A stretch of 64,000 nt of DNA from an uncultured Nitrososphaerota archaeon (GTDB lineage Archaea > Thermoproteota > Nitrososphaeria > Nitrososphaerales > Gagatemarchaeaceae): contig CAVRAG010000007.1 in NCBI GenBank assembly GCA_963718895.1, positions 32,001 to 96,000 of the forward strand, read 5' to 3'. A program made the position numbers and the translations under genes. The notes under the pieces are model-generated. The model was given only the letters and a program-made list of their open reading frames with translations, was not told the origin of the DNA and did not search any database. Below are positions 3,674 to 30,870 of this stretch, in pieces. Every line of letters starts with the position of its first letter. Within the stretch, counting starts at the first letter, position 1.

Positions 3674-4015
3674 GAGAACGACGACCCCCGGGTCGTATTA
3701 AAACGGCGGACACGATTCTCGGAATTGAGAAACATGTCACGGTTCCTCAACGTCGCAGCGGGCACCCGCGGGTCTCGATCGCCAGGAAGCGGGCACGCGG
3801 CGCACACGGCGAGCGTGGATGAGGAGACCGAAACTCTCGCAGCTCGTTACGCCCTAGGCGGAGGCGTTTCAGACCCGCCGTCCAGTCCCGGCACCGGATC
3901 GGTCGAGAGGGTGGTGGTAACATAGGGAGGCGCGCTTGACCTGTACTCTCCCTACATAGGGTAGTTTCAGTTCACGTTTATAGTGGAGGGTCGGCGGCGT
4001 TCCCTGTGTAAGAGG

Positions 4016-5325
4016 ATGACAGAACATTCGTCTAGAAGATTCATGTTTAGTCTGATAATCGGCCTGCTCTTGGCTGTGACCTGCGTCCCATTCGTTCAGC
4101 GCGCCCTGCGGCGGCGAGCACTCAGACGACCAGCGGGATAATCATACCTCTGTACGTCTACCCTGGGTCCGTCTGGACCACCCTGCTCCAGGAGAAGCAG
4201 GCCAACCCCACCGTCCCGATGACGGTCATCATCAACCCCGGAGACGGCCCCGGCGTGAAGCTCAGCTCAACCTACGCCACATGGGTGGTCAACCTGCGTG
4301 CAGCCGGGATCAACGTCCTTGGCTACGTCTACACCAGCTTCGGCGCGAGGAGCGCAAGCTCGATAAAGACCGACATCGCGACATACAAGAGCTGGTATGG
4401 CATCAACGGCATCTTCGTCGACGAGATGTCGAACAAGGTGGGATATGAGTCGTACTACACCGCCCTCACCGCCTACGCTCACTCCGAGGGCTTCCCACTC
4501 GTGGTCGGGAACCCGGGGACCTCGGTCCCTCGTCCTTCTTCGGGACGACCGACGTGGTGCTCGCCTTCGAGAACCCGGCCCTCCCCACTATGTCTACGCG
4601 ACCACGACGGCGGGCCAGCCCAAGAGCGAGTTCGCGGTCGTTTCATACGCAATCCCGTCCCTCTCGATGTCCTCCGTCAGCATGATGGCCAACTACGCCT
4701 CCTACATCTATGTGACCAACGGGATCAACCCCGACCCGTACACGGCCCTCCCGTCCTACTCTCGACACTGGTCTCTGACGTGAAGACGTTCCTCTCGACG
4801 ACCACCCCCCTCACGGTCCAGGCGGCCGACGTCAATGGGAAGGCTGTGACCGGACTCTGGACGACGGTGAGCCTGAACGGCAACGTGGTCGACGAGGGCT
4901 ACACGCCGCTCTCCTTCCTGGGCACGACGGGCGACAAATACGCCGTCTCCGTCCCCAGCTTCCAGAGCTCAACTTCAAGCACTGGCAGGACGGGAGCACG
5001 ACCCCAACGAAGACGGTCACCCTTTCGGCGTCGACGGCGCTCACCGCGACGTTCTCCGTCGCCTACTCGATCACGGTCAAGTCGGTGACCTCCTCGGGCG
5101 CGGCGCTCACAGGAATGCGGGTCTACGTCAAGTCTGGCGGGAACACCCTCGACGCCCACGTTCACCCCCACGACCTACTCGGGGACCCCCGGAGTGGTGT
5201 ACACGGTCTGCGTCAACAACTACCAGAACCTCGTCTTCAGCCACTGGGACGACGGGACCACGAGCTCCTGCAGGACGCTCACGCTCTCCGAGAACGTCCA
5301 GCTGACGGCAACCTACAACACCTGA
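4016..5325 (+). CDS. Secreted spherulin-4/GH135-like protein with two C-terminal ~85-aa repeats (several frameshifts)
   Basis: Signal peptide from ATG 4016; IIIPLYVYP, IINPGDGPG, LGYVYT, GIFVDEM, VGNPGT. Indels near 4108, 4535, 4590, 4760, 4970, 5150; TGA at 5323-5325. Confidence 0.8.
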
Positions 5326-5389
5326 CGCGGGTCACCCCCTTTCGACTCAGGGACAAGCTTGACCAGCCGATCCAGGGACCGCGCTCCGC

Positions 5390-6840
5390 CTAGCCCGAGG
5401 AGCACCCGTTGGTGCACGTGTACCACACGTCGAGGCTGCTCCCGGCAACGACCTGGATAGGGTCGGTCCGCGTTGCCGTCGCCCCAATGGTCGAAGATGA
5501 CGTCGTGGGTCGAACCGTGGCAGCTGTCGCAGTCGTCAGCTCGAAGGATGTAGGTGGCGCCTGAAGTGAGGCCGGGGAACGTGTACCCGTCCTCGTTGGA
5601 GAACCCGTCGCGGATCAAACATGCCTCCCGAGCTGTAGACGCGAAGTACATCGTCGCTCTCGGGCCCGTCCCGGCCGCGCAGACGGTGGCGAAGCAGGGG
5701 CTCCAGTAGGACGCCGGCACCCTGTGGGCGTAGACCGTTATCGTGGACACGCCGCCGTTGTTGCAGTCGTAGACCGCCGTGAAGGACTGGTTGCCGCTGA
5801 CCGGCGTGAATTGCACGGGCACGTCGGAGTCCGTGCTGGACCAGTTGCTGAAGGTACAGCTCCCTCCCGCGGAGGCCGGACCCATAGGACTGGCCCACGG
5901 TCGTCGGGAAAGTCACGGCCGTCGACCCCGTCGCAACCGTGGTCCCTGCGGAGTCGAGGAGGGCAATCGGGTAGCCGGAGATGGTCCTTCCGTCCTGGTC
6001 GACGGAGACTACGGTGACGTCGGAGGTGCAAGAGTACGTGGCCGTGAAGGTGACCGCCGCGCTCGTCGCGGTGAACGGACGCGGGTCGGTCGTGACGCCG
6101 TCGGACCACCTGCTGAAGGTGCAGCTGCCGTAGCTCTCAGCTAGCACGCTGTACGCCTGTCCCACTGTCGTGGGGAAGGTCGTGGGGGTGAACCCCGAAG
6201 CGACGGCCGTTCCGCCCGAGTCGTAGAGGGCCGCGTAGTAGCCGCTGATCGTCGCCCCGGCCTGGTTGACCGAGTCGATGGTTGCGGTGGATTTCGTCGT
6301 CCGCAGCTGTAGTCGGCCGTGAGAGAAGCCGGGGCGGTCGCGGCCGTGAAGGTGCGAGGGTCGCTGGTCACCCCGTAAGACCAGTTGCTGAAGGTGCAAC
6401 TGCCGTAGCTCTCCACTCGCACTCCGTAGGTCTGGCCGACGGTGGTGGTGAATGCGGCGGGCGTGTACCCTTCACGACGATGGTCCCGTCCGAGGCGTAG
6501 AGAACGGCACGATAGCCGGTTACGGCCGCGCCGTTCTGGTCGACCGAGTCGACCGTGACGCTCGAACTCACCGTGCCGCAGTCGTAGACCGCTGTGATCT
6601 GCGTGTTGCTCGATATAGAGATCGGTCGTTGGGCCGATGTGCTGCTCGTGTCCGCCCAGCGGGCGAAGCCGCAGCTTCCATAGCTTTCGGCCTGGACGAT
6701 GTACGATTGCCCGTCGTCCAGGGTGAAGGTGGCAGGCGTGTAGCCCCTCGAGACCAGGACGTGGGCGGAGCTGTACAGGACAGCCTCGTAGCCCGTTATC
6801 GTCTGGCCCCCGGTGTTCTGGCTGTCCACCGTCAGCGACG
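5390..6840 (-). repeat. Tandem ~260-bp coding repeats (four clear, one degenerate)
   Basis: Recurring T(V/I)xSxxQxGxxxxGY...G(Y/F)TP..F...GQxY...ESYGSCxFxxW...TAxYxC. Confidence 0.8.
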
Positions 6841-8360
6841 ACGTGGTCGTCTGAGATGACGGGTTCAGGGCGTAGATTGTGGCGTTCGCTGCTGCGAAGA
6901 GGAGGCCGTCGCCGGCCGACGGGGTCGTGAAGTGTTCGACGGTGCCCAGTGACGTGCTGTAGAGGAGAGAGCCTGTCTGCGGGTCGAGGGCGTACAGCTT
7001 CCCTCCGGGGACGGACCGTCCAGACGGCTCCGGCGGCTATTATCGGGGGACCGGCGAAGAGCCCCGTGTAGTTCCAGAGCGAGGTAAAGGTCGGATGTGC
7101 CCCCGGATGGAGTTGGAGCGCATCGAGCCCTCCGCCGCACGGTACGTAGATGACGCCGTTGGCGAACGACGTGGCGCCCCAGGCGCCGTAGGGCCACGGG
7201 GCGTTGACCGCACCGCAAACCGGCGCGCTGAAGAGCTGGCCACCTATCCCGCCGAGGTCGGAGGCGTTCAACAGGTAGCCGGTGTTGTACTTGCCCATGG
7301 TGAAGACGAGGTTTCCCGGCAGCAAGGTCGCGCCGGTGTTCCCGAGGTCGAGGTCGTTGGTGTTGGTGTACTGCCAGTTCGTCTGGGCGAAGTAGTTCGC
7401 CGAAGTGTCGACGAAGGAGAGGTGCGGGGTGAGCTTGATCACGGCGTTGCCGAGGTCGAACGTCTGGTTGTCGCTGTCTCCGGTCACCATGTACACGCTT
7501 CCCGACGCTTCCACCGAGACCCCTTCGGGGGCCCAGACGTCGCCCTCGGGCCTGGACGGAACGTTGTACGCGGACTGCTCGCCGGCCCCAGTGGATGACA
7601 TCGCGATGTCCCACCCCGTCGGGCCCTGCGTGAAGCACTCCCACGAGAAGCCCCCGAACGGGACGTACACGAGCCGTCCGCGAGTGCGAGCGCGCCCGTT
7701 CCTCCTGGGGGAGGTAGTTGAATCCCTGGGCGGCTATGGTGGACCGCCAAACCTGCTGCCCGGTGTTCAGGTCGAGCCGAAGAGGATGTAGCCGCTGTTG
7801 CTGACCAGCGCGGCGGCGTCGATCGTGCCCGACGCGGGGTCGATGACCGGGGTCCCGGTGATGCCGATCGTGGGCTTGATGTCGGGCCCGTTCTGGTTGT
7901 TGTTGCAGGCGTAGGGCGGCTCCACGCTGTCGGCGGGGGTGCCGAGATTCGTCGACCAGGCGATCGCGCCGGTCGCCGCGGTCAGCGCGTAAACGTTGTC
8001 GTCCTCGGTCGCCACGTAGACATAGCCGCCGTAGTAGAGAGGCTCCGCGTAGACCGCGCCGACGACCGTCGCCTCCCAGCTGGCCGACGGCGATGAGATT
8101 GCGGGGAGGGAAGCCGGGTACCCATCGGGAGTATTGTCGTAGTGATAGGTGGTCCACCCGTCGCTCGAGGTCGCGGCGCCGGAGGTCGTCAGGTTCGAGA
8201 CCGTCGCACCCTGCGAAGGTCCGGTGTCGGGAGTCTGTCCGCGGCCGGACGCTGCGAGCGCGGCGGGGAGGAGCGAAGGCACGAGGAGCAGGATGGCAGT
8301 CAGGGCGACGACGGCTAGCCCGTAGCTATGGCGGCGATGGAGAGAACGCGCTGACGGCAC
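5390..8360 (-). CDS. Secreted PQQ-like beta-propeller with five C-terminal ~85-aa Cys-containing repeats (several frameshifts)
   Basis: Signal peptide, WTTYHYDN, VYAEPL, GITGTPVID, DLDLGNTG, GPPIIAAGAVW. ORF pieces 7767-8360, 6141-7670, 6368-6829, 5536-6399 and 5313-5885 join into one gene ending at TAG 5390. Confidence 0.8.
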
Positions 8361-9297
8361 CTTTAACGAACAGACGCCGGGCGGGCGAACTTGAGCCTAG
8401 CGGTGGATTCTTCTGTAGATAGCTCAGGCGGAGTCCCTTCGGTGCGCGTGTACCCTGCGTCGCGGTAGGGGGTCGCGGCCGAGAACGCGAGACGGTCGTG
8501 GTGAAGAATGAGGGCACGGACCAGTACGGGTGGGGCGAGACCGCGTTGGTCAGGTAGACGTAGCGGGCGTAGTGGGTGATAGAGCTCAACGTCGCGAGGC
8601 TCGGAGATGAGACGCCGTACGATATGACAGCGAAGTCATCTCGCGTCTGGCCCATTGAGCACGAGCTGAGCCTGGAGGTCGTCGGCAGGCCGGACCGCTC
8701 GTAGATCACCAGGATGCTGACTGTGCCGACGTATGAGATGGGCACGCAGGTGCCGGGGTTGCCGACGACCGTCGCCAGTCCCAGAGACTTCGCATAGCTC
8801 GTCAGCGAAGCGTAGTAGGACTCGTGTCCGACCGTGCTGGGCATCTGGTCGAGGAAGATTCCGTTCACGCCGTACAGGCTCTTGAACTTGGCAATGTCGG
8901 CCCTCACGGAGCTGGCGCTCCTGGCCCCGTAGTCTGTGTAGACGTAGCCGACGACGGTTATGCCCACCGACATCAATCTGTTGATCCACGTGGCGTAGTT
9001 GGACTCGCGGGAGACGCCGGGACCGTTGCCCGGGTTCACTACGGCGATTACCGGCACATGCGGGTTGGCCAGCTTGTCTTGAATCACCACGTTCCAGGAT
9101 GAACTGGGATAGGAGTAGAGCGGTATGATTAGGCCCCCGGGGTTATAGTTCTGGGTCGATGCTGAAGCGGAGGACAGCGCCGGGACCCCGACCAGCAGCA
9201 GTAGTGCCAGCACGAGCAGATAGTGGAACGTTCTGTTAGAAGAAGATGGAAACATATCCTCGTCTCGGGCTTCAACAGAATTGACTATAAAATTCAT
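8326..9297 (-). CDS. Secreted spherulin-4/GH135-like protein (catalytic domain only)
   Basis: LIIPLYSYP, VVNPGNGPG, VGYVYTDYG, GIFLDQM, VGNPGT, YER. The extreme C-terminus may be frameshifted. Confidence 0.85.
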   Translation of the reverse strand: MNFIVNSVEARDEDMFPSSSNRTFHYLLVLALLLLVGVPALSSASASTQNYNPGGLIIPLYSYPSSSWNVVIQDKLANPHVPVIAVVNPGNGPGVSRESNYATWINRLMSVGITVVGYVYTDYGARSASSVRADIAKFKSLYGVNGIFLDQMPSTVGHESYYASLTSYAKSLGLATVVGNPGTCVPISYVGTVSILVIYERSGLPTTSRLSSCSMGQTRDDFAVISYGVSSPSLATLSSITHYARYVYLTNAVSPHPYWSVPSFFTTTVSRSRPRPPTATQGTRAPKGLRLSYLQKNPPLGSSSPARRLFVKGAVSAFSPSPP

Positions 9298-9501
9298 GTG
9301 AAGGCAGATTACGTAGCGCGTCGACTTCGGACGCGGACATCCGGCTAAGCGTTCGCCTGGCGGCGTCCCGCCCAGTCGCTTCGCCGTCTCCGCGCGCCTC
9401 GGACGCTTTCCATCTTAGCGATCGCGGGAGGCTAGGGTGCCGCTGCAGCCTCCTGAGGCGCCCCTCGTAACGATTCACTGTAACACAATTACGCAAGTCA
9501 G

Positions 9502-10743
9502 ATGAACAGAGTGGAGCCCGGTTCAGCAGAGTGGTACGGAGTGCAGGTGGTTCGAAGCCGCCGGCGGGGACTGGCCTATGTTGCCGCAGTCGCCTTCACG
9601 GCGGTGGTTCTCGCGGCAACGCTCTATCAATCGCTGACGTCCGCCGTCGCCGGGCAATCGAGCGGCAGTGAATCGAGTCTACCGGGGCTGACCTCCCCTA
9701 GGTCGACCGGTACGCTCACCACGGCGCTCACCTCGGTCTCCACCCGGGCTTCGGGTTCGACCACGGCAGTCCCGTCCATCCTGGCAGTGAACCAGGAGAG
9801 GTCGGGTCTTGTCGCGTCAGACTCCCTGACCACAGGAGGGACGGGCCAGTGGATATTCTACGGCAGCGCGCCGGTTGAAGGCGGGATCGGAACGTACAGC
9901 GAGAACGGAAGCGGCCTCTATCTCGGGGTACTCGCCCGCACCGCCGGCACATACGCGGGGTTCTACGCGAGAATGTCCGTGAACGCGGATGTCTTCAATG
10001 CTGTCATCTCTCTTCCTGTGAACAGGACCGCAGGCGACGTCAGGTTCAACACGGGCCTCTACGTCCAGACGGGGGGCCCCGGCGTCACATATGTCACCTG
10101 TGACGCGGGAGTGAATTCGAGGGGCTACTCCTGGGTCGTCGACAGGGCCGTGGGGGACGCGAAGCAGGCGGAGACGATTACTCCTCTATGGTTCGAAGCG
10201 AATCAAGACCAGCCGCTCACCAGGGACTGCACCATAGTGACGAACGGACAGAACCTCCTCGAGGTCTATCTCGACCACAAGCTCGTCTACTCCAACTCCT
10301 CCATGGACCTGGGATACCAGTATCCCCTGAGCGCCCGGGTCGAGGTGCAGTCCAACGACAACTCGACGATGCGCTTCGGCCGATACTCGGACTTCTACGC
10401 GGCGACGTCCGACAACGTCACAGTGACCCACGCGCCGGTGGGAGCGGTCGTTGAGCTCGTCAGTCCGTCGGGCCGAGTCTACTTCAGCAAGACCGCGGGG
10501 GCGTCAGGGACAGTCCAGATCGGCCTGGCGGCGTTCGCGATGCCGCTGATCGCCTATGTGCGCGTGGTCTACCTTGGACGCACGCTCGCGACGAGCCGGC
10601 AGCCGGCGGAGGTATGGGGAGGCGATGCCTACACGTTCGGCCCGCTGGGTGTCGTGGCCCTCCACCGGTCAGGGCGCGGCCCCGAAGCCGATCCTAGGGC
10701 AGCCGCACGGGCTCCGCAGAGCTGGAGGAAGAGATCCCCTTAG
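9502..10743 (+). CDS. Membrane-anchored extracellular protein, Ser/Thr linker plus beta-rich domain
   Basis: RSRRR followed by a hydrophobic anchor, an S/T-rich linker and an aromatic/Gly-rich beta-strand pattern. Confidence 0.7.
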   Translation: MNRVEPGSAEWYGVQVVRSRRRGLAYVAAVAFTAVVLAATLYQSLTSAVAGQSSGSESSLPGLTSPRSTGTLTTALTSVSTRASGSTTAVPSILAVNQERSGLVASDSLTTGGTGQWIFYGSAPVEGGIGTYSENGSGLYLGVLARTAGTYAGFYARMSVNADVFNAVISLPVNRTAGDVRFNTGLYVQTGGPGVTYVTCDAGVNSRGYSWVVDRAVGDAKQAETITPLWFEANQDQPLTRDCTIVTNGQNLLEVYLDHKLVYSNSSMDLGYQYPLSARVEVQSNDNSTMRFGRYSDFYAATSDNVTVTHAPVGAVVELVSPSGRVYFSKTAGASGTVQIGLAAFAMPLIAYVRVVYLGRTLATSRQPAEVWGGDAYTFGPLGVVALHRSGRGPEADPRAAARAPQSWRKRSP

Positions 10744-12284
10744 CGGTCCCGTTGACGACGTACGCGTAAAGTGATCGTGTCGTCGATCGGCGACCAGGTT
10801 GATCGCCTGGTTGCTGGTCCCGTTCGCCCACGACGAGAACGTGTAGGTCTTGAAGCTCTGCATGACGATGGTGTAGTTGACCGTACGGGTCGCGACCCAG
10901 GTGAACGGGGTGTACCCCCCGGCGACCATCGTGCCGTTCGTCCACACGGTCGTCCAGATTCCGACGACCGGGATGTTGTTCGTCTCGTTCGTGAGCACCG
11001 TCACCACCGAGGCGTTCGAGCTCGACGTGCTCGAATACGCGACGAGGGTCGTGGCCTGCTTGGGCGAGAGGCTGACCGTCCGCGCCTTGCTCCCGCCGCT
11101 CCAGTGGTCGAAGACGTACCCCCCGTCGTCCCTCACGGTGACCGTGACCTTCGACCCTGAGATGACCTGGAACGTGGCCGGGGCATGGGCCGTGGTGCTC
11201 GTCCCGTCCGGCTGGACGACCGTCACCTGGAATCCCCGGTCCACGGAGGTCCCGTTCGGCGTCAGCGTCTCCACGGTCACGGGGACCAGGGACGAGAGCT
11301 CCGAGGCGAGCTGGTCGAAGTAAGGGGGGAGCGACCCGTAGGGAAAAGGCCTGACCCCGTTCGTGATGAAGAGCGACCCGACGTAGTCGGAGGCCGCTGC
11401 GACGTAGTAGGGATTCGATCGAGGTCTGGTCATAGACGAGAACGCGAAGTTGCTCTTGGTGTAGTTCGAGTGCCATCCCCCACGTATCGAGAGCGCGGGG
11501 AGGTGGGAGTTCTCGAAGTAGCCGATTGTCGTGACGGACCCCATGAAGTAGTAGGGGATGTCAGTACCCGAGTTCCCGAAGTCGGTGGTGTAGCCGAGGG
11601 ACTTGATGTAGGCCGTGAGCGCGGAGTAGTAGGCGGGGATGTACGCACTGGTCGAGCTGTACTCCAGGTTGTACATCTGGTCGAGGTAGATCCCGCTGAC
11701 GCTGTACCACCTGTGCCATGCCAGTATATCGCCCTCGACGGAGGGGACTGGTCTGTCCCCCCACCCCGTGGGGACGTACCCTAGGACCACGACCCCCGCC
11801 GACCGCATCTCGACCAGGCCGGCGCCGTAGGTCGAGTTAGCCACGGGTCTGGGTCCGCCGGACGGGTTGGCCACCACGGTGATCGCGAGGCGGGGTGCGC
11901 GGCCTTCTCCGCGATAATCTGACCCATCTCTGTTAGCGAGTAGTTCGTGAACATAGGGATGATCACCCCCGTCCCGAGCTGCGGGGTGCTGGACGAGCCG
12001 TTGCTCGTCTGGGTGGAGTGGCTCTGGGACCCCGAGGATTGCGTCGAGACGGTCTGGGTCGGCGGCGACCCTCCCTGGCTGGAATGGGAAGAGACCGTGA
12101 CGCCAGTGTCCGAGACGGTCGAGCTCGGCTGCGGGGACGGACCGAAGGCCGAGGTGCTGGAGAGGACGAGGACCGCGATCACCGCCACGGCCAGGGAAGC
12201 CTGGACTGCCCTGTTCCTGAGAGGCCCGGGGACGGTCTTCATACGGCCTTGCCACCCATTGCAGCTGCGGGTGCCGACCGCCAC
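10694..12284 (-). CDS. Anchored spherulin-4/GH135-like protein with S/T linker and two C-terminal repeats (frameshifts)
   Basis: N-part in ORF 11781-12284 (TM, linker, VIIPMF), then VVANPSGGP, LGYVPTGWG, GIYLDQM, GYFEN. Repeats contain FDHW and GGYTPFTW. Confidence 0.8.
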
Positions 12285-14004
12285 CTACTTGCTCGTATCC
12301 AGACCATAGACCGTCTCACCTGCCGCACAGACTATCAGCCCGTCGGCCACAGAGGGCGTAGCGAAGTGGTCGGGCGAGCCCAGGGCCACCTTCGTGACCA
12401 GTTTCCCTGTCTGCGGGTTCAGCGCGTAGAGGGTACCGTTGGAGATGTCGAAGGTCCAGACGGCCCCCCCTGCGACGATGGGGGGCCCGGCGAAGCCCCC
12501 GCTGAAGTTCCAGAGTGAGGTGAAGGTCGGGTCTGCGCCGGCCTTGATCGAAAGCGCGCGCAGGCCGTTGGCGCAGGGCACGTAGACGACGCCCGAAGCG
12601 TACGCGGTCGAACCCCAGGCGCCCGAGGGACAGACCTGCGAGGAGAAGAGCTCACCCCCGACTCCGCCCAGATTCGAGGAGTTGAGCAGGTAGCCCACGC
12701 CCTCCTTCCCGATAGAGAAGAACTAGGTTGCCCGGAAGCAGAGTCGCCCCCGTAGTGCCGAGGTCCATGTCGTTCGCGTTGAGGTAGGTGTAGTTCGCGT
12801 CGCCGAAGTACCCGACGACCTTGAGGTCAGGCGTGAACTTGATCACGGCGTCGGAATAGTCGAACGGAGGAGACGTCTGCTGGCTGTCTGACGTCACGAC
12901 GTAGAGGAACCCCGAGCCATCGACGGAGATCCCCTCCGGAGCCCAGATGTCTGCCTCGACCGTCGCTGGGACTTCGTAGCTGTGCTGAGTGCCGTTGCCG
13001 TTCGCGGAGACGCCGACTATCCAGCCGTGTGGCGGGACACAGGCCCAGGAGAACCCGCCGAAGGGGACGTAGACGAAGCCGTCCGTGAGCGTCAACGCAG
13101 CCCTCTGTTCCTCCCCTGTGGACACGAACCCCGAGGGCGAGATGGGCATGGACCAGCGGATGGCCCCCGTGTTGGTGTCCACCGCGTACAGCTCGTAGCT
13201 GGGCCCGGCGACCATCGCCACGACGTAGAGCGTCCCAGTGGAGGAGTCGATCACCGGCGTTCCCGTAATCCCGATGGTGGGGACGATGTCAGGGCCGTGG
13301 CCGCCGCACTCGAGAGGGGGGACGGTGGCGCTGACCGCTGACCCTAGGTGCCTGGTCCACTGGAGAGCCCCGGTTGCCGCAGAGAACGAGTACTCGGTGT
13401 CGTTCTCGGTCACGACGAAGACAGAGCCGTCGAACGAGAGAGGCTCCGCGTAGACCTGACCGTCGACTTGTGCCTTCCATGCGACTGAGAGCGAGGTCAG
13501 CGTCGGGACCGAGGTGTCGTACCCGTCCCTGGCATTGCTACCATGATAGGTGAGCCAGTATCCGGCCGCGGAGGTCGAGGTGGACGACGTGCTCGTGGTG
13601 CTGGTCGTCGTCGAGGTCGTGCTCGTCGTACTTGTCTCACTCGTCGTGCTAGTTGCGCTAGTAGTGCTAATAGTGCTCGTTACGCTAGTCGTGCTGGTTG
13701 TCCTAGTGGTCGATGTCGTGGATGTCGTGGAGGACTGGATGATCGTCGAGGTTACGTTAGATTCCTGGCTCGATGTCCCGATGGACGAGGTGCTAGAGGT
13801 CGTCGGTGCCGAACCTTGCACGTTGCTCGAGAACTCCGATGATGCGATGACCACGACCGAGAGCACGACCAGAATCGAGACCCCGAGCGCGACGATGTAA
13901 CCCCTCTTCCGTCTGCGCAGGGCTCTATCCCTATCCTCCATCGCAGGCGTACCCTGTCTGAGCCTACCTGCGTTGTGTAAGCTTCCTCGGGTAGAATCAT
14001 CCAT
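12285..14004 (-). CDS. Anchored PQQ-like beta-propeller with Ser/Thr stalk (frameshift ~12715)
   Basis: RRRKR plus TM, T/S stalk, WLTYHGSNARDG, VYAEPL, GITGTPVID, DMDLGTTG; C-part in ORF 12285-12698. Paralog of 5390-8360. Confidence 0.85.
13565..13810 (-). repeat. Low-complexity Ser/Thr-coding 9-nt periodic repeat
   Basis: Encodes TTSTTS... stalk. Confidence 0.75.
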
Positions 14005-20207: not shown

Positions 20208-21249
20208 TCAGGCCCCGGACGCGGCCACACCGGACGTGACGCGGCGCTCGACGACGATGTCGGCGGTCTTCTCCTTGAAGTGGCATGCGACCAGGTGCCC
20301 CGGGGTGACCTCCTCGAGGGGCGGGTCGACCTTGGTGCAAACGTCCTCCATGTAGGGGCACCTTGGGTTGAACCTGCAGCCCGTCGGCGGGTTGATCGCG
20401 CTTGCGACCTCGCCCTTGATCTCGATGTTCAGTAGGTTCCTCTTCCACGGGTTGGCGACGGGCGCGGCGCTCATCAGCGTGATGGTGTAGGGGTGCCTGG
20501 GCCCCGCCATGACCGTCTTGGTGGGGCCGTACTCTACGAGGTGCCCGGCGTACATCACGGCGACGACGTCGGAGAGGTACTGGGCGACCGCGATGTTGTG
20601 GGTGATCAGCATGTAGGAGAGGCCGAACTGGTTCTGCAGCTCGATCAGGAGCCGCAGTATCTGTGCCTGGACAGAGGCGTCGAGGGCGCTGGTCGGCTCG
20701 TCGAGTATCAGGAGCTGCGGCGAGGGGGCTATGGCGCCGCGCTATTGCGACCCTCTGCCTCTGGCCTCCGCTGAGCTGCTTGGGGATGCGGTAGGCCTGC
20801 TCCTCCGAGAGGCCCACGGCGGACAGGCTCCGGGAGACCCTCTCTTCGATGGCCCGCCGGTCCCCGCCGAGCAGACCCCGGACCGGCTCGCCGACGGTGT
20901 CGGCTATGGTCTTCCTCGGGTCGAGGGACGAGTCCGGGTCCTGGAAGACTATCTGGACCTTCTTGTAGACCTCCTTGCGACCAATCTTCGCCATGTCCTG
21001 TCCGTCGAGAAGGATCTCGCCCGAGGTCGGCTCGATAAGCTGCGCCACGGTCCTCGCCAGGGTGGTCTTACCGCACCCTGATTCCCCCACGATGGCGACC
21101 GTCTTGCCCCTCGGGATGCTGATCGAGACCCCGTCGACCGCCTTCACGACCCTGCGCTCGGCCTTGCTGAATGGGTTGAGGCTACGCCTGAGCGGGTAGT
21201 ACTTCTTCAGGTCCCTGGTGACCAGGACGTCTTTGGTCTCATTCGCCAT
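20208..21249 (-). CDS. oppF: Peptide ABC transporter ATPase OppF/DppF (frameshift ~20735)
   Basis: GESGCGKT, LSGGQRQR; C-part ITHN, HPYT, GCRFNPRC. Confidence 0.9.
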
Positions 21250-22300
21250 ATAGAAAACACGATACCTTGTGTCCTGGGCTGACCTCGAGCAGCTTCGGCG
21301 CCTTGCCCCTGCAGATGTCCATGGCGGAGGGGCACCTTTCCGCGTAGCGGCATCCCGGGGGCGGGTGGACCAGGTCGGGGACCGAACCCGGTATGGGCAT
21401 GAGCTTGGTGTCGTCCTTGGACCCGGTGGGGATGCACGAGAGCAGCCCCTTGGTGTAGGGATGGAGCGGCTTGGAGAAGAGGTCGAAGACCCCGGCGTCC
21501 TCGACGACGTCGCCCGCGTACATCACGACCACCCTGTCGGCGACCTGGCTCGCCACGGCCAGGTCGTGCGTGATCAGCATTATGCTGGTGTTCACCTCGG
21601 TGATCAGCTCCTTCATCAGCTTCAGGACCTGCGCCTGGGTCGTCACGTCGAGCGCCGTCGTCGGCTCGTCGGCGACGAGGAGCTTTGGGCGCTGCGAGAG
21701 CGCCATGGCTATCATAACCCTCTGGCGCATGCCCCCGGAGAGCTCGAACGGGTACCTGTCGAGGACCTGCTCCGGGTCGGCTATCCTCACAAGCTTCAGG
21801 GCCTCCACCGCCTCGGCCCTGAGCTCGGGGGTGAGCTTCCTCTTGGGGCGGACCACCTTGGGCGCGCCCTTCGCGTCCTTCTTGTGGAGCTCCTGTATCG
21901 CCTCGGGGTCGGAGACGTCCAGGCCGGCGGACCTGCTCTCCCGGATCAGGATCGCCTCGGCCATCTGTGAGCCCACCTTGTAGACCGGGTTCAGGCTGGT
22001 GAGCGGCTCCTGGAAGATCATGGCGATCTCGGTCCCCCTGTAGCTTCTGAGGTGCTTCGGGTCGAGCTTGACCAGGTCGGTCCCCTTGTAGACTATCGAG
22101 CCCCCGAGGACCTTCGCCGGAGGGCTCTGGAGGAGGCCTATCATCGAGAGCGCCAGGGTGGACTTGCCGCACCCGGACTCGCCGACGACGGCCAGGAACT
22201 CCCTCTCGCCGATGTCGAGGTCGATGCCGTTGAGCGCGACGAGCCTCCACTCGTGGAACTCGTAGGCTATCTTCAGGTCGTCGATCTTGATGAGGCTCAT
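21239..22300 (-). CDS. oppD: Peptide ABC transporter ATPase OppD/DppD
   Basis: ATG 22300; GESGCGKS, LSGGMRQR, DEPTTALD, HPYT. Confidence 0.95.
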   Translation of the reverse strand: MSLIKIDDLKIAYEFHEWRLVALNGIDLDIGEREFLAVVGESGCGKSTLALSMIGLLQSPPAKVLGGSIVYKGTDLVKLDPKHLRSYRGTEIAMIFQEPLTSLNPVYKVGSQMAEAILIRESRSAGLDVSDPEAIQELHKKDAKGAPKVVRPKRKLTPELRAEAVEALKLVRIADPEQVLDRYPFELSGGMRQRVMIAMALSQRPKLLVADEPTTALDVTTQAQVLKLMKELITEVNTSIMLITHDLAVASQVADRVVVMYAGDVVEDAGVFDLFSKPLHPYTKGLLSCIPTGSKDDTKLMPIPGSVPDLVHPPPGCRYAERCPSAMDICRGKAPKLLEVSPGHKVSCFLYGE

Positions 22301-23214
22301 GCCGAGCTCTCCTCCAGCGCGTCGCGGAAGCCGTCCCCGAAGACGCTGAACCCGACGACGGCCATGGCGATGGTGAGGCCGGGGATCACCGGCAGCCAGG
22401 GCGCGGAGATCAGGTAGTCCTGGTAGTTGCTGACCATGTACCCCCAGTCGGGCGCGGGAGGAGGGATCGAGAGGCCGAGGTAGCTCAGGCCCGAGTAGAC
22501 GAGGACGACCGTGCCGAGGTCTAGGGTCGCGTAGACCACCAGGGTGAGGAAGATGTTGGGGATGACGTGGCGGACGACTATCCTGAAGGTCCCGAACCCG
22601 GAGGTCTTTGCGGCCTCGATGTAGTTCTGGTGGGCGACCTTGAGCGTCTCGCCCCGTGAGAGGCGGGCGTAGGCGGGCCACCAGACCATCATGAGCGCGA
22701 ACGCCATGGTGAGGATCCCCGGTCCGAGCCTCGAGACGATGGCGATGGCGAGGATGAGGGCGGGTATTGCGAAGAAGATGTCCGTGACCCTCATCAGGGC
22801 CTCATCGAAGAGCCCTCCCCGGAACCCCGCGAAGCACCCGACGGCGATGCCCACGATGAGGGCCACGCCGACGACCGCGAACCCGATCGAGAACCCGTTG
22901 GGGGTCGCGGCGATGATCCTGCTGAAGACGTCCCTCCCCAGCTGGTCGGTCCCGAAGAGGTACTTCGCCGAGGGTCCCAGGAGAGGCGGCCCCACCGGCT
23001 CGATGGGGTTGTAGGGGGTTATCTGGATGTGGAGGAGCTGGGTCACCTCGACGACCAGGGCGACGACCACGAAGGCCATGATGATCGCGCCGCCGATCAT
23101 CATCTCCTTGTTCCTGCGCAACCGGACTCCGCCGGTGATGAAGCCGAGGCGTCCGACGTTCTTCCGGACCGGCCTGTTCGGCTTGACCGGTTCTGGGGGT
23201 TCCTGGGTCGCCAT
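22297..23214 (-). CDS. oppC: Peptide ABC permease OppC/DppC
   Basis: FGTDQLGRD, EAAK, LSYLGL, PDWG. Confidence 0.95.
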   Translation of the reverse strand: MATQEPPEPVKPNRPVRKNVGRLGFITGGVRLRRNKEMMIGGAIIMAFVVVALVVEVTQLLHIQITPYNPIEPVGPPLLGPSAKYLFGTDQLGRDVFSRIIAATPNGFSIGFAVVGVALIVGIAVGCFAGFRGGLFDEALMRVTDIFFAIPALILAIAIVSRLGPGILTMAFALMMVWWPAYARLSRGETLKVAHQNYIEAAKTSGFGTFRIVVRHVIPNIFLTLVVYATLDLGTVVLVYSGLSYLGLSIPPPAPDWGYMVSNYQDYLISAPWLPVIPGLTIAMAVVGFSVFGDGFRDALEESSA

Positions 23215-23215
23215 T

Positions 23216-24235
23216 TTAGCTGTACCTGATCTGGGGGTCCACGACGACGTACAGGATGTCAGCGGAGAGGTTCGTAAGCACGATGAGCGAGGCGAATATC
23301 AGCGTGGTCGCGAGTATCCCGGGGTAGTCCGAGGCCAGCAGCGCCTGGACGACGTACTGTCCCATACCCGGATAGGCGAAGATGTTCTCCACGAAGACCG
23401 TCCCGGTCAGGAGGTAGGTCACCACGAGTGAGGAGACCGTGACGACGGGTATCAGCCCGTTCCGCAGGCCGTGGCTCAGGAAGACGGTTCTCTCGTCCAC
23501 TCCCTTGGCGCGGGCCGTCCGGATGAAGTTTGAGTGCATCACGTCGAGCACCGAGGCTCTGAGTATTCTGGTCACCACGCCGAAGGTGGTCACGGCGAGG
23601 GTGAGGCTCGGGAGGATGACGTGGATGAGGGCGCTCCTCAGGTAGGCAAAGTTCCCCTCGATCAGCGAGTCCAGCATGGGTATCCCCGTGATCGCGTGCG
23701 GGGCGATAATCGAGACGTCCGCGGCGCCACCGCTCGGGAGCAAGTGGAGATAGTAGACGAGGATTATCAGCAGCACCAGCCCGATGAAGAATGGGGGAGA
23801 GGAGTATCCGGCGAGGTAGAACCCCCGGATGCCTGCGTCGAGGGGCTTCTTGTGGTAGAACGAGGCAAGGATACCGAAGGCGATCCCCATCAGCAGAGTC
23901 AGGATGATCCCGAAGAACGCTATCTGGAGCGTGTACGGCAGCGTCTGCTGGATGACCGTGATGACGGGGGTGAACCCGCGGGACGGCGAGACCCCGAGGT
24001 TCCCCTGGGATAGCCCGAGCACATAGTAGTAGAACTGGGTGTAGATGGGCGCGTCCAGGTGGTACTTGGCCACGTAGAGCTTGACCAGGTTGGGGTGGAG
24101 AGCCGCGGACTTGCCGAGCCACGCGTAGATCGGGTTCCCGAAGCTGTGCGAGATGGTGAACGTTATCACCAGCACACCTAGGAGGACAAATATCGCGAGA
24201 AGCAGACGGCGAGCGATATAACGCCCTATATCCAC
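23216..24235 (-). CDS. oppB: Peptide ABC permease OppB/DppB
   Basis: GTG 24235; YIARRLL, RTARAKG, ENIFAYPGMG, DPQIR. Confidence 0.95.
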   Translation of the reverse strand: MDIGRYIARRLLLAIFVLLGVLVITFTISHSFGNPIYAWLGKSAALHPNLVKLYVAKYHLDAPIYTQFYYYVLGLSQGNLGVSPSRGFTPVITVIQQTLPYTLQIAFFGIILTLLMGIAFGILASFYHKKPLDAGIRGFYLAGYSSPPFFIGLVLLIILVYYLHLLPSGGAADVSIIAPHAITGIPMLDSLIEGNFAYLRSALIHVILPSLTLAVTTFGVVTRILRASVLDVMHSNFIRTARAKGVDERTVFLSHGLRNGLIPVVTVSSLVVTYLLTGTVFVENIFAYPGMGQYVVQALLASDYPGILATTLIFASLIVLTNLSADILYVVVDPQIRYS

Positions 24236-24397
24236 GGGGCTAAAGTTGCGTTCTGAGTTATTTATCGATATTGGTGCAAATTTAAACTCGCGCGGGACCC
24301 CGCAGACGCCTGCGAAATCTCCTCTGGGGGTGAGCGGACCGGACCCAAGCTGGGTCGCCGGAGGTCTGGACTCGCGCCTCGGAAGGCGCTGCAAATC

Positions 24398-24403
24398 TTA
24401 TAA
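24398..24403 (+). promoter_or_regulatory. TATA box
   Basis: TTATAA ~30 nt before the SDR start. Confidence 0.5.
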
Positions 24404-24431
24404 CGAGTCGGCCCCTATGCTCGAGTGACAA

Positions 24432-25193
24432 ATGGGATCGAGCCTGCAGGACAAGGTCACGATAGTGACGGGAGCGGCCTCCGGCATAGGGAGGGGCTCA
24501 GCCATGGTCTTCGCGGCCAACGGGGCGAAGGTCGTGGTGGCGGACATAGACGAGGAAGGAGGAAAGAAGACGGTCGAGGAGATAGGAAGGCGCGGCGGGA
24601 CGGCGATCTTCGTGAGGACGGACGTCTCCAGCGCCTCGGACGCCAAGAACTGCGTCGAGAGGGCCGTGAAGGAGTACGGGAGGCTCGATTGTCTCTTCAG
24701 CAACGCCGGCTTCAACCCCACGGGCACCGTCGTCGACACGACGGAGGAGCTCTGGGACCGGCTCATCGATGTGAACCTTAAGGGCATGTTCCTGATGTGC
24801 AAGTACTCTATCCCCGAGATGAAAAAGGCCGGAAGGGGCTCGATCGTCTGCACCGCGAGCGTCGACGGAGTCATCGCCATAAGGAACGAGGCCGCCTACA
24901 TCGCCTCCAAGGGCGGGATCATCTCGCTGGTGAAGGCTATGGCCCTGGACCACGCCCCGGACAACGTCAGGGTCAACTGCATCCTCCCCGGTGCCATCAG
25001 GACCGCGCTCTACGAGAAGTTCATCCGGGAGAATCCGGGCATAGAGGACCAAGCGAAGGAGCACGCAATGGGGAGGATAGGCGAGCCGGAGGAGGTCGGA
25101 GAGGTCGCGATGTTCCTCCTCTCGGACGCTCCCAGCTTCGTAACCGGGGCGATTATCCCCGTGGACGGGGGATACTCGGCGGTCAAGACCTGA
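24432..25193 (+). CDS. Short-chain dehydrogenase/reductase
   Basis: TGAASGIG, NAG, YIASK, VDGG. Confidence 0.95.
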   Translation: MGSSLQDKVTIVTGAASGIGRGSAMVFAANGAKVVVADIDEEGGKKTVEEIGRRGGTAIFVRTDVSSASDAKNCVERAVKEYGRLDCLFSNAGFNPTGTVVDTTEELWDRLIDVNLKGMFLMCKYSIPEMKKAGRGSIVCTASVDGVIAIRNEAAYIASKGGIISLVKAMALDHAPDNVRVNCILPGAIRTALYEKFIRENPGIEDQAKEHAMGRIGEPEEVGEVAMFLLSDAPSFVTGAIIPVDGGYSAVKT

Positions 25194-25232
25194 CCGGCCG
25201 CATGCACGCCCAGAGGCAGGCGCCGGGGACGC

Positions 25233-26411
25233 TCAGACGATGCTTCCGAGCCCCTTGTAGCTCGTGCCTCCCGCGGGCAGTCGGTCGAACCTAGACATAG
25301 AAAACTCCGACCTGTCGAAGGTGGGAGAGTCGGCGCCCCCCAGCATCTCCGTGACCATCAGGCCGAACGCGGGGCACATTTTGAAGCCGTGTCCGCTCAG
25401 CCCGACGCACGCGTACACGCCAGGGAAGCCCAGGCCGGCGAGGCTGTCCACCACGGGCAGTTCGTCGGGGGTCGTGTCGTACATCCCGTAGTATGTGCTG
25501 TGGACGGTGCCTTCCTTCATGGGCGGAATCCTTTCCATCATCGACTCGGAGAACCTCGAGACGTAATCGTCCGGGGCCTCCCTGGGGCAGTCCTCGGGCG
25601 CTACCGAGACCTTGTCGAGCTCGGCGTCGATGCTCCCCCCGTAGAGTAGCGACCGGCCCTCGGGCTTGTAGTAGGCCTTCTTGGCATAGTCTGATACTAT
25701 CACCTTGGGGCCGAGATACCTTTCCGGCCTGCGGTAAACGACGATCGGGTGGGGGACGACCCTTAGCGGAGGCCGGATCTCGACCGGGACATCGCTCCGG
25801 GAGAGGATGTCGTTGGTCCAGATGTTGGTGCAGAGTACCACCCTGGAAAACTCGAGCCTCCTCCCGTCCCCGAGAAGGAGAGAGGTCGCGCTCCGCGAAT
25901 TCTCGATTCGCTCCACGCGGGTGTTAACAAGAACGCGGGCGCCCAGGGACTCAGCCATCGAAGAGTATGTCCTAGCAGTCGAGACCGGGTCGGCGTAGCC
26001 GCTCTCGGGCTCGTACACGAAGTGGTCGACATCGTCGACCTGTAGCTCTGGGAATTGGCGGGCAGCGTCGTTCCTGTCGAGGACCTCCTCCGCGACGCCC
26101 ACGGACCTAAGCATCGAGACGTTCGCCTGCGCCGCGGGCCAGTGCTCCTCCGGGACGAGGAACAGCATGCCCGACCTGACGAACCCCGCGCCGTCCATGC
26201 CTCGGAGCACCCCGAGCGAGTAGAGCGCCATCCTTGCCAGGGTCTCGTTGCTGTAGTGGGTCCTGACGTTCGCGGTCGAGCGGCTCGTCATCCCTCCCCC
26301 GATCTGGTCCATCTCGATGAGGGTCACTGGGTGCCCGGCCTTGGCGAGGTGGTACGCGACGCTCGACCCCGTCGACCCTGCGCCGACCACTGCGACGTCC
26401 TCGGTCTTCAA
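25233..26411 (-). CDS. FAD-dependent oxidoreductase (DadA / sarcosine oxidase beta family)
   Basis: VVGAGSTG, GMTSRS, GYADP, YDTTPD, GLSGHGFK. Confidence 0.9.
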   Translation of the reverse strand: MKTEDVAVVGAGSTGSSVAYHLAKAGHPVTLIEMDQIGGGMTSRSTANVRTHYSNETLARMALYSLGVLRGMDGAGFVRSGMLFLVPEEHWPAAQANVSMLRSVGVAEEVLDRNDAARQFPELQVDDVDHFVYEPESGYADPVSTARTYSSMAESLGARVLVNTRVERIENSRSATSLLLGDGRRLEFSRVVLCTNIWTNDILSRSDVPVEIRPPLRVVPHPIVVYRRPERYLGPKVIVSDYAKKAYYKPEGRSLLYGGSIDAELDKVSVAPEDCPREAPDDYVSRFSESMMERIPPMKEGTVHSTYYGMYDTTPDELPVVDSLAGLGFPGVYACVGLSGHGFKMCPAFGLMVTEMLGGADSPTFDRSEFSMSRFDRLPAGGTSYKGLGSIV

Positions 26412-28588: not shown

Positions 28589-28640
28589 CTAGAAAGTACC
28601 GAAAGGGAAGGGGAGGGCGGCGGAGGGCCGCCCGATTCGC

Positions 28641-30869: not shown

Positions 30870-30870
30870 T

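Follow-up and report, generated by a model that had tools for sequence, protein, structure and literature searches.

Three GH135/Spherulin4-like proteins encoded beside two PQQ_2-type propellers in a Nitrososphaerales archaeon

Sph3 of Aspergillus (GH135; PDB 5c5g, 5d6t) is the endo-alpha-1,4-N-acetylgalactosaminidase of galactosaminogalactan biosynthesis, and shares the Pfam family PF12138 with the archaeal proteins described here. The D166A variant of Sph3 is inactive according to the accessible part of a preprint (bioRxiv 10.1101/113696), and the accessible text of PMC12054363 names an Asp and Glu222 as the catalytic pair; the Asp is printed there as 'Asp196' and is taken here as D166. An N-terminal membrane anchor followed by an extracellular catalytic domain, as described for Sph3 in the portion of PMC9860509 that is available, is also the arrangement of the archaeal proteins. 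The archaeal genes differ from Sph3 in their host, in their number (six in this genome, three of which lie within 10 kb) and in the C-terminal beta repeats and Ser/Thr stalks of their products. They also lack a synthase, epimerase or deacetylase nearby, and their activity is a prediction from sequence.

Secreted GH135 and PF13360 proteins have already been published for the Gagatemarchaeaceae (Sheridan et al. 2023, PMC10640624). As far as the accessible sections of that paper go, these are non-ammonia-oxidising, high-GC Nitrososphaerales of soil and peat with multiple signal-peptide GH135 genes and with several, frequently adjacent, PF13360 genes in each genome; the same sections make no mention of GH135 beside PF13360, of common repeats, of a ConA-like protein or of a PelF link. 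The host of the present locus is likewise a high-GC Nitrososphaerales archaeon of peat or acid soil, and the cluster is a local variant of gene content already reported for its relatives.

The window, a stretch of 64,000 nucleotides, carries at 4016-14004 six genes, A to F (Table 1), encoding three Spherulin4/GH135 proteins, two paralogous propellers of PQQ_2 type, predicted to be eight-bladed, and one exported beta protein. The gene models come from frameshift-aware alignment to the intact orthologues of another Nitrososphaerales MAG, L001. Identity to these is 251/434 for gene A (446-aa orthologue), 450/823 for gene B (820 aa), 148/262 for gene C (267 aa, no indel), 209/401 for gene D (no indel) and 246/493 for gene F against the L001 propeller, and the propeller of gene F is 49-64% identical to propeller 1 of gene B over the pieces compared. 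The position of the 3' end of gene B is uncertain, its Cys-rich C-terminal tail has no Pfam match, and the assembly probably shows the C-terminal tail of gene C in a wrong frame. All six proteins have an N-terminal hydrophobic segment (19-residue Kyte-Doolittle mean 2.1-2.9).

Table 1. Genes, domains, repeats and inferred indels of the island, in window coordinates
Feature	Position	Strand	Content or basis
Gene A	4016-5325	+	signal peptide, GH135/Spherulin4, two ~90-aa beta repeats
Gene A repeats	about 4810-5054, 5155-5319	+	repeat HMM
Gene B	8360 to ~5313	-	N-terminal anchor, PQQ_2/BamB-type 8-bladed propeller (predicted), repeats, Cys-rich C-terminal piece
Gene B propeller	about 8180-6870	-	
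Gene B repeats	four clear ~90-aa 6841-5760; weak fifth 5672-5460	-	repeat HMM
Gene C	frame 9297-8326, likely start 9255 to ~8470	-	signal peptide and plain GH135
Gene C GH135/Spherulin4 domain	9162-8476	-	PF12138
Gene D	9502-10743	+	N-terminal membrane anchor, Ser/Thr-rich stalk, ConA-like jelly roll (predicted), small C-terminal beta-sandwich
Gene E	frame 12284-10669, likely start 12242	-	anchor/signal, ~70-aa Ser/Thr stalk, GH135, two beta repeats
Gene E beta repeats	11280-11041, 11010-10789	-	repeat HMM
Gene F	14004 to ~12288	-	N-terminal membrane anchor, ~100-aa Ser/Thr stalk, second propeller
Gene F propeller	13560-12288	-	
Gene A indels	near 4106, 4532, 4600, 4761, 4973, 5130	+	alignment to L001
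Gene B indels	7777, 7697, 7671, 7013, 6474, 6302	-	alignment to L001
Gene E indel	near 11890	-	alignment to L001
Gene F indel	near 12720	-	alignment to L001
Sites corrected in contigs	at or near 4600, 5130, 7013, 7671, 7697		

An earlier note on this DNA had described six neighbouring exported or anchored proteins, among them three spherulin-4-like proteins (one plain, one with repeats, one with stalk and repeats), two paralogous propellers, a beta-rich anchored sixth protein and two same-strand tandems of a propeller gene with a GH135 gene. This gene content stands, and both tandems are real (C to B and F to E, the latter with ~40 nt between the end of gene F and gene E). The note is to be corrected in that 14 inferred indels of 1-2 bases break up the reading frames within ~10 kb and that the restored propeller 1 is a protein of ~1000 aa that bears the same repeats as two of the GH135 proteins. 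Repeat arrays of the same kind lie at four other places in the genome. The InlB B-repeat family PF18998 (Flg_new_2) was considered for these ~90-aa repeats and rejected, as it reached only 19.3 bits against a cut-off of 23.6, in gene E alone, and had no match at E<=1 on the L001 proteins; the resemblance is no more than a lead.

The frame breaks reflect errors in the assembly, not decay of the genes, because independent contigs carry the missing or extra bases. Contigs from peat and soil metagenomes of two other studies, near-identical to the window (mostly 95-100%), have frame-restoring bases at five of the 14 inferred sites, and none crosses an inferred indel site ungapped. Their corrections fall at 4596 and 5158 in gene A and, as inserted bases, at 7011/7013, 7673 and 7694 in gene B; in the region of gene C they differ by +1, -1 and -1 at 8452, 8481 and 8484. 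That the cluster is nevertheless decaying into pseudogenes is extremely unlikely. The density of the indels, with 12 in genes A and B alone, would fit such decay, as would the contrast with the long aminoacyl-tRNA synthetase genes of the genome, three of four of which are open over more than 850 aa. However, nearly all events involve 1-2 bases, GC3 is coding-like throughout every piece, the sole credible in-frame stop (7767-7769) falls where two indels put a short stretch out of frame, and the second in-frame stop listed sits in a non-homologous stalk. A genome 80.5% complete in just 11 contigs also fits a noisy long-read assembly.

The GH135-like identity of the three proteins, also claimed in the earlier note, is borne out. 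PF12138 scores 87.3 bits on gene A (4219-5088, +), 139.2 on gene C, where it spans model positions 2-237 of 239, and 81 on gene E (10669-12255, -), against a gathering score of 30.2; the L001 orthologues score 146.5 and 130.2 bits, and one of them matches the Sph3 chains 5d6t/5c5g directly at E 2e-13. In this L001 protein D141 and E191 align with D166 and E222 of Sph3. Among the 29 aligned Nitrososphaerales copies the Asp is invariant (29/29) and at least 90% retain the Glu. Both equivalents are present in genes C and E, and the pieces of gene A show ..FVDE.. and ..AFEN... Genes C and E have Gln right after the catalytic Asp, at a position occupied by Glu in Sph3. In the GH135 tree, gene C is sister to the L001 copy with support 100/97. 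To our knowledge, no archaeal GH135 has a known enzyme activity or substrate.

The propellers match PQQ_2 (PF13360, cut-off 27.6) with 32.8 bits at 7767-8360(-) and 37.1 bits at 12652-14004(-), and a further piece, 12285-12698(-), falls just below the cut-off with 26.5 bits. The AlphaFold2 model (pLDDT 93.4) predicts an eight-bladed quinoprotein/BamB fold, which Foldseek matches to quinoproteins and BamB alike (E 1e-16 to 1e-19), with query-normalised TM-scores of 0.69-0.73 to quinoprotein alcohol and methanol dehydrogenases. The family is large and exported; at E<=1e-30 it comprises 423 representative clusters, the majority from bacteria. The best PDB matches of its profile are BamB chains, but the archaeal host has no outer membrane and the domain has ~430 aa, against ~350 aa in BamB. 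Assignment as a BamB equivalog is rejected, with TIGR03300 at 40.2 bits against 285.2 and NF008351 at 36.6 against 423; only PF13360 passed.

The earlier note had also cast the propellers as possible oxidases. They would then be PQQ-dependent dehydrogenases oxidising sugars or oligosaccharides freed by GH135, a hydrolase-oxidase couple for which the predicted fold speaks, as does the accessible part of PMC10640624, where PF13360 proteins are counted as PQQ-dependent dehydrogenases. Invariant Arg, Lys, Trp and Cys in the family, with Asp/Asn near-invariant, point the same way. At locus L033 (G125:C17), in one other genome, the gene of a protein with a cupredoxin domain and PF01011 at 155.8 bits stops 184 nt short of a same-strand GH135 gene. 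The many invariant polar residues of the propeller family (including R155, K286, D175, N227 and D265/D267) speak against a plain co-located surface protein, as they hint at a specific site, perhaps that of an enzyme, rather than a mere scaffold. Yet a canonical quinoprotein identity is rejected for the propellers themselves, on which PF01011 stays below its cut-off of 26.7 (21.3 bits on a gene B piece, 18.4 in L001) and covers ~50 of 595 model positions. The family profile matches BamB chains at E 4e-22 but reaches just 1e-10 to 1e-5 for quinoproteins, in each case by way of the repeat motif, and the domain is short beside the quinoprotein targets of 509-723 aa. The fusion partners found in relatives of the propellers are Ig-like, TIG, CWB2 and CBM-like modules and not redox domains. 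The genome, at its 80.5% completeness, has no match to pqqC (TIGR02111), and its pqqE-like TIGR02109 matches score no higher than 69 bits (cut-off 381); this is a weak point, as the pqqC model was silent in every control genome too. With the scarcity of GH135-propeller pairs elsewhere (below), the oxidase claim is not upheld, and the hydrolase-oxidase couple appears very improbable.

The gene D product is predicted to contain a ConA-like jelly roll (AlphaFold2 pLDDT 93.7). Its top Foldseek matches, with probability 1.0, are to GH16, L-type lectins and CBM66, at target-normalised TM-scores mostly of 0.36-0.60. The beta-jelly-roll fold would thus be common to this domain and to GH16 laminarinases, Emp46/47 L-type lectins and CBM66, but identity to these is just 7-15%. 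Gene D matches no Pfam family at cut-off and no PDB entry by sequence profile; its 35 homologues, whose names include Nitrosotalea and Nitrosotenuis, are restricted to Nitrososphaeria as far as seen. Assignment to GH16 is rejected: no Glu occupies an invariant or near-invariant column among 30 homologues, so the catalytic motif Glu-x-Asp-x(x)-Glu is missing. The predicted fold fits a glycan-directed role.

A conserved GH135-propeller apparatus, as the earlier note envisaged, is not supported by related genomes, and the link between the two is weak. The pairing recurs in a single related MAG, L001; in other Nitrososphaerales, 14 propeller loci and 20 GH135 loci were compared and all lack it. 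Two of the three propellers of this family in the genome lie within 3 kb of one of its six GH135 genes, for which random placement gives a chance of ~4e-4, a value that is approximate, since the one pair is not independent of the other. An island that simply gathers fast-evolving surface-protein genes, the proteins having no functional coupling and a different substrate such as the envelope glycans of the cell itself, would explain the generic surface traits of its products (anchors, Ser/Thr stalks, repeats), the repeat arrays elsewhere in the genome, the differences in gene order and orientation between the window and L001, and the frequency of GH135 with repeats in one reading frame but without propellers (13 frames at 12 of the 20 GH135 loci). 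Against this, L001 has retained genes A, C, B and D as a set even though the genes that flank them there map elsewhere in this genome (61-73% identity), the family is GalNAc-specific and its catalytic pair is conserved, and the tie to a GalNAc-polymer synthase of PelF type across the order is strong. An uncoupled island is therefore considered quite unlikely.

Across this order, GH135 has its conserved partner in a PelF/PelG-like exopolysaccharide block and not in the propeller. In a survey of 201 genomes of the order, a strong DUF3492-GT4 match was found in 17, all within the 23 GH135-positive genomes, and in 11 of the 17 (families f1, f4, f7, f12 and f15) no more than 6 kb separates it from a GH135 match. 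The GT4 protein passes the NCBIfam PelF equivalog (159.9 bits, cut-off 100), and its neighbours are an ATP-grasp protein, a GalE-like epimerase and a membrane protein of 547 aa that looks PelG-like by Atlas features. The block thus resembles the Pel loci of bacteria (glycosyltransferase PelF, PelG, and the hydrolase/deacetylase PelA) in placing a PelF-equivalog GT4, a PelG-like protein and an epimerase beside a GalNAc-polymer hydrolase, but the hydrolase is GH135 rather than PelA and the block includes an ATP-grasp gene. GH135 copies that adjoin it form no separate clade and the tree is largely unresolved, and therefore nothing splits 'biosynthetic' from 'free' GH135 paralogues.

The block lies outside this window, where, as the earlier note had it, no glycosyltransferase, deacetylase or exporter occurs (45 further reading frames scanned). 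Nor did the genome (G000) yield a PF11997 (PelF/DUF3492) match or a PelG-like or ATP-grasp orthologue; tblastn with the block proteins of G148 found only generic GT4 proteins at 23-24% identity and a 95-aa stretch at 34%. As the genome is just 80.5% complete, non-detection of the synthase is not absence, and a self-made polymer is unproven here. Of the two alternatives that the note had offered, remodelling of the cell's own matrix gains ground from the block that GH135 accompanies and often adjoins, over attack on foreign exopolysaccharide.

Feeding on a fungal cell-wall polymer is the role proposed for the GH135 proteins of Gagatemarchaeaceae in the accessible text of PMC10640624. It could draw on the six GH135 matches of the genome, on the non-detection of both amoA and a PelF-type synthase, on the peat and soil origin of the near-identical contigs, and on an Opp/Dpp-type ABC importer (20.2-32.8 kb) and sugar/inositol catabolic genes in the window. 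The importer, however, is 6 kb away with unrelated genes between. Ammonia oxidisers are generally chemolithoautotrophs, and GH135 is as abundant or more so in genomes of this order that carry amoA (3-10 matches each in G148, G121, G161 and G094; amoA in 4/4 tested GH135-rich genomes of f12/f15), so it is not solely a trait of heterotrophs. Its presence in all 17 PelF-like genomes argues instead for a self-made polymer in the order. Fungal feeding is thus judged unlikely.

The data show the domain content, the kept catalytic pair, the export signals, the assembly origin of the frame breaks and the synteny counts. Activity, substrate and any role of the propellers are what we infer, and we give the whole of the following proposal about an even chance. 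The locus would be an island peculiar to this lineage, and its six products would be cell-surface proteins that are secreted or anchored in the membrane. Its three GH135 proteins are probably active hydrolases of the retaining endo-alpha-1,4-N-acetylgalactosaminidase type, judged by their sequences, and would cut a GalNAc polymer of the Pel/galactosaminogalactan type outside the cell, with Ser/Thr stalks that may keep their domains off the membrane. The propellers and the ConA-like protein may most simply be co-located surface proteins, probably glycan-binding and not obligate partners of the hydrolases. The polymer would most likely be a Pel-like exopolysaccharide made by Nitrososphaerales through the PelF/PelG-like block, in this cell or in its neighbours, and the set would serve to remodel or to harvest that matrix.

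The reading frames of the cluster are much broken, and in a GC3 plot the coding frame jumps again and again along one strand. The genome to which it belongs (G000; the window is G000:C7:32001-96000) amounts to 3.13 Mb in 11 contigs, with a G+C content of 57-61% per contig, and is 80.5% complete and 5.4% contaminated. In the cluster, Pfam places Spherulin4 (PF12138), its counterpart of CAZy GH135, in three frames and PQQ_2 (PF13360) in pieces of two more genes. Intact counterparts of four of the cluster genes lie in a row in L001, a locus from a MAG titled Nitrososphaerales archaeon, and frameshift-aware alignment of the L001 proteins to the window yields six gene models, A to F, with 14 inferred small indels, of which A and B have six apiece and E and F one apiece; C and D contain none. 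Repeat units of ~90 aa, found with a repeat profile, number two in A, two in E and four in B, with a weak fifth. All six proteins start with a basic stretch and a hydrophobic segment, followed in D, E and F by Ser/Thr-rich stalks; Ser and Thr make up 50% of the first 150 residues of F. The earlier note had described three exported GH135 proteins, two propellers and a sixth exported beta protein, and this description is borne out by Pfam, the frame-corrected models and the N-terminal segments; its gene picture needed repair, and propeller 1 (B) proves to be a long protein with the hydrolases' own repeats.

Several Cys residues lie in the C-terminal piece of B, for example in SPCFATVCAAGTGP and DDCDSCHGS; Pfam gives no match to this piece, and the L001 orthologue lacks a counterpart of it. 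More arrays of the ~90-aa beta repeat are present elsewhere in the genome, one of them fused to another GH135 copy, and in this organism the repeat seems to be a module used generally in surface proteins.

Positions of the cluster genes, of their counterparts in L001 and of other features (window coordinates unless a contig is named)
Feature	Position	Strand	Length	Content
Gene A	4016-5325	+		GH135
Gene B	5313-8360	-		propeller 1
Gene B, C-terminal piece	5313-5885	-		Cys-containing motifs
Gene C	8326-9297	-		GH135
Gene D	9502-10743	+		exported beta protein
Gene E	10669-12284	-		GH135
Gene F	12285-14004	-		propeller
L001 counterpart			446 aa	GH135 + two repeats
L001 counterpart			267 aa	plain GH135
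L001 counterpart			820 aa	propeller + three repeats
L001 counterpart			458 aa	gene D-type protein
Importer	20211-32829	-		Opp/Dpp-type ABC importer
Gene run	36222-64000			sugar/inositol catabolism-type genes
Repeat array	G000:C8:800864-801301			~90-aa beta repeats
Repeat array	G000:C8:1060724-1061299			~90-aa beta repeats
Repeat array	G000:C8:1112122-1112730			~90-aa beta repeats
Repeat array	G000:C8:1333650-1334198			~90-aa beta repeats
Repeat array	G000:C4:172309-172569			~90-aa beta repeats, fused to GH135
L033 (G125:C17)	6561-9341	+	927 aa	cupredoxin + PF01011 protein
L033 (G125:C17)	9525-10715	+		very divergent GH135
L036	G148:C1 ~1285-1292.5 kb			Pel-like block locus, outside the window

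The frame breaks could reflect either assembly error or decay. Of four long aminoacyl-tRNA synthetase genes in the same genome, three are uninterrupted for >850 aa; the error rate is therefore uneven, and decay has to be weighed. The indels were checked against Logan contigs from three runs of two studies, peat and soil metagenomes, at low depth. On the cluster these contigs are mostly 95-100% identical (21 of 45 at 99% or more, 12 of 45 at 90-95%), and they have bases added or missing at 4596, 5158, 7011/7013, 7673 and 7694, on or beside five of the 14 inferred sites. Further differences fall at 5365/5368 and, within the anomalous tail of gene C, at 8452/8481/8484. None of the listed contigs passes ungapped over an inferred indel site, nine of the 14 sites being uncovered or unlisted. 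On the Logan evidence we reject a pseudogene reading of the cluster and take the indels to be consensus errors of long-read assembly in genes that are probably intact in nature. The indels are crowded, with 12 in the ~4.4 kb of genes A and B (window 4000-8400) against two in the next 5.6 kb, which may be due to strain mixture or low coverage over variable surface-protein genes. Beyond 18 kb of the window, most genes are open.

The closest characterised guide to the hydrolases is Sph3, the Aspergillus GH135 enzyme, described in the portion of PMC9860509 consulted as a membrane-anchored retaining endo-alpha-1,4-N-acetylgalactosaminidase. The plain GH135 protein of L001 matches two Sph3 crystal chains (E 2e-13 and 1e-12), and counting along this alignment makes Sph3 D166 the Asp of '..IFLDQ..' and Sph3 E222 the Glu of '..VFEN..'. 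D166A appears as an inactive Sph3 variant in an extract of bioRxiv 10.1101/113696. The nucleophile and acid/base are printed as 'Asp196/Glu222' in an extract of PMC12054363, where we take 'Asp196' for a misprint of 166, the number that agrees with the 56-residue spacing. Across 29 aligned GH135 domains of Nitrososphaerales, every copy has the catalytic Asp and at least 90% have the Glu; both are present in genes C and E, and the pieces of gene A show the same two motifs. Directly after the catalytic Asp, Sph3 and gene A have Glu, and genes C and E have Gln. The GH135 copies of this peat archaeon are taken to be intact and are plausibly active. A tree of 32 GH135 domains is mostly unresolved, though it groups gene C as sister to the L001 copy and gene E as sister to a copy from G088, another genome of the order.

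The AlphaFold2 model of the propeller, built from an alignment of 62 homologues, is 8-bladed (pLDDT 93.4). By fold, BamB and the quinoprotein alcohol/methanol dehydrogenases are alike, ranking together in Foldseek (E 1e-16 to 1e-19), but sequence tells them apart. PF01011 scores 18-21 bits on the propellers, below its cut-off of 26.7 and over ~50 of 595 positions, compared with 155.8 bits for a true PF01011 protein of genome G125, and the family profile finds BamB chains at E 4e-22 and quinoproteins at 1e-10 or weaker, always via the repeat motif. In G000 no match to pqqC was found and pqqE gave radical-SAM-level matches only, a weak search because the pqqC control was silent everywhere. PF13360 propellers should not be read straight as PQQ dehydrogenases. 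The family is large (7081 representatives at E<=1e-3, 423 at E<=1e-30) and, by Atlas taxa, mostly bacterial; in the sources its members are called 'BamB', 'hypothetical' or, in one case, 'polyvinyl alcohol dehydrogenase' and nothing else, and their fusion partners are Big_3_5, TIG, CWB2, DUF5719 and agarase-CBM-like modules. Trp, Cys, Arg and Lys residues are invariant and Asp and Asn residues near-invariant, and this conservation would leave room for a specific site, possibly even for catalysis. Among the profile matches is tetrathionate hydrolase, an example of how such propellers can be cofactor-free enzymes.

The sixth protein, gene D, has 35 homologues, with names only from Nitrosotalea and Nitrosotenuis, some fused to FN3 or cadherin-like domains. 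Its model (pLDDT 93.7) shows a ConA-like jelly roll with a small beta-sandwich after it, and Foldseek matches it best to GH16 enzymes, L-type lectins and CBM66 (7-15% identity). The homologue alignment has no conserved Glu, and the profile matched no PDB chain. A lectin-like role would be the simplest reading of the model.

The earlier note made its reading depend on conserved co-localisation of GH135 and propeller, and the survey, covering 201 genomes of the order Nitrososphaerales, speaks against such conservation. GH135 is found in 23 of these genomes, the cluster's propeller family (E<=1e-10) in 17, including G108, which later comparisons leave out, and PQQ_2 of any kind in 97. Fourteen propeller loci were compared, 13 from 12 other genomes together with the third copy of G000 (on C8), with flanks of up to ~9 kb and several contigs shorter; the comparison leaves out G063:C140 (full-length, E 2.6e-88), G158 (two loci, several pieces) and the weak or partial matches of G108, G036 and G034. 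None of the 14 contains GH135, a repeat array or a gene D-type protein, and none of 20 GH135 loci from 12 other genomes contains the propeller family or a gene D-type protein. Across 15 propeller loci, no other neighbour is common beyond close relatives. Fusions of GH135 to the repeat are common (13 frames in 12 of the 20 GH135 loci). L033 is the only one of those 20 in which a true PQQ-dehydrogenase-type gene adjoins GH135, ending 184 nt upstream on the same strand.

Among the loci compared, the gene set is thus common to the window and L001 only. The genes flanking it in L001 match G000 at 61-73% identity but at scattered places, and therefore the four genes stayed together while their surroundings changed, which is some evidence for linkage in this one lineage. 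A complex prediction that paired the propeller and the plain GH135 of L001, with an alignment for each, scored 0.00 in two runs without controls and counts neither way.

A different partner of GH135 emerges from the order. Pfam finds ATP-grasp (7), NAD-dependent epimerase (4) and GT4 with DUF3492 (3) among 96 neighbour frames in the 20 GH135 loci. These form a block of GT4-DUF3492, epimerase, a 547-aa multi-pass membrane protein and ATP-grasp, which adjoins GH135, whole or in part, in L018/L038, L021, L026, L029, L032, L034, L036 and L040. The epimerase is GalE-like, and the GT4 passes the NCBIfam PelF equivalog (159.9 bits against a cut-off of 100). No Pfam family matches the membrane protein, and 25 of its 30 Atlas feature matches fall in the PelG set, a lead only that it may be PelG-like. 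Strong DUF3492 matches occur in 17 of the 201 genomes, all 17 GH135-positive, and lie within 6 kb of GH135 in 11 of them, across five families. Six genomes have GH135 without DUF3492 (G198, G044, G063, G143, G173 and G000). In the GH135 tree, adjoining the block takes five changes against a shuffled-label mean of 5.2, that is, no extra clustering. The block looks like an archaeal Pel-like exopolysaccharide locus, in which GH135 would take the place that PelA holds in Pel loci.

In G000, 80.5% complete, neither DUF3492 nor orthologues of the other block genes were found; the genome of L001 has two DUF3492 matches, on other contigs. A contig of the same genus that has the block (G186:C29) shows no synteny with G000, and the block's absence from G000 may be either loss or an assembly gap. 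Given the completeness of the genome, the producer of the polymer may be this cell or others.

In our reading the island would encode stalked hydrolases of the cell surface that act on a GalNAc polymer of the Pel/GAG type, accompanied by propellers and a lectin-like protein, whose coupling to the hydrolases is putative. Because of the order-wide PelF link, the substrate is most likely a polymer made by Nitrososphaerales. Feeding on fungal galactosaminogalactan, the reading published in PMC10640624 (as far as the consulted portion goes), is a fair rival, and the organism of G000 is without amoA, in its favour. The gene was likewise not found in G186, while each of the four GH135-rich genomes tested from families f12 and f15 has it. 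The rest of the window encodes an Opp/Dpp-type importer, oxidoreductases and an inositol-catabolism-like set, and the 45 other window frames scanned contain no glycosyltransferase, deacetylase or exporter, as the earlier note had also observed. The importer comprises two ATPase pieces, two permeases and two large family-5 solute-binding proteins, apparently separated by frame breaks and flanked by an aldo/keto reductase, an esterase and flavin oxidoreductases. The later run holds a Cgl0159-like protein, three GFO/IDH/MocA oxidoreductases, a TPP enzyme, KduI/IolB, a PfkB kinase, a xylose-isomerase-like barrel, two enolase-superfamily proteins and a DegT aminotransferase. No Rfam family reaches gathering score anywhere in the window.

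Returning to a polymer of the order's own, a fuller reading can be put forward, although taken whole it is rather unlikely. Nitrososphaerales, ammonia oxidisers included, would make a Pel-like alpha-1,4-GalNAc matrix through a PelF/PelG-type synthase, with GH135 replacing PelA, and the island would be its extracellular arm. This arm would combine the stalked GH135 hydrolases, a cofactor-less propeller from a large uncharacterised exported family, acting as a new glycan-active module, and a ConA-like lectin; its parts would have one repeat module in common and would act together in binding, trimming or dispersing the matrix of the archaea.

For Gagatemarchaeaceae, genes for secreted GH135 proteins and clusters of PF13360 genes are already in print, as the consulted portion of PMC10640624 attests. 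This particular island, of which one MAG (L001) has a set of four genes, is a further case of that published kind; going by search listings, no description of an archaeal GH135-PelF locus or GH135-propeller cluster was found in the literature. For the window itself the gain is modest: repaired gene models for a MAG of noisy sequence. Of wider interest is the set of genomes compared, where GH135 travels with the PelF/PelG-like block, in amoA-carrying genomes too. If true, a cationic matrix of Pel/GAG-like type may be built by ammonia oxidisers of the soil as well as by their heterotrophic relatives, and the GH135 expansions would bear on the making, remodelling or eating of archaeal biofilms in acid soils and peat.
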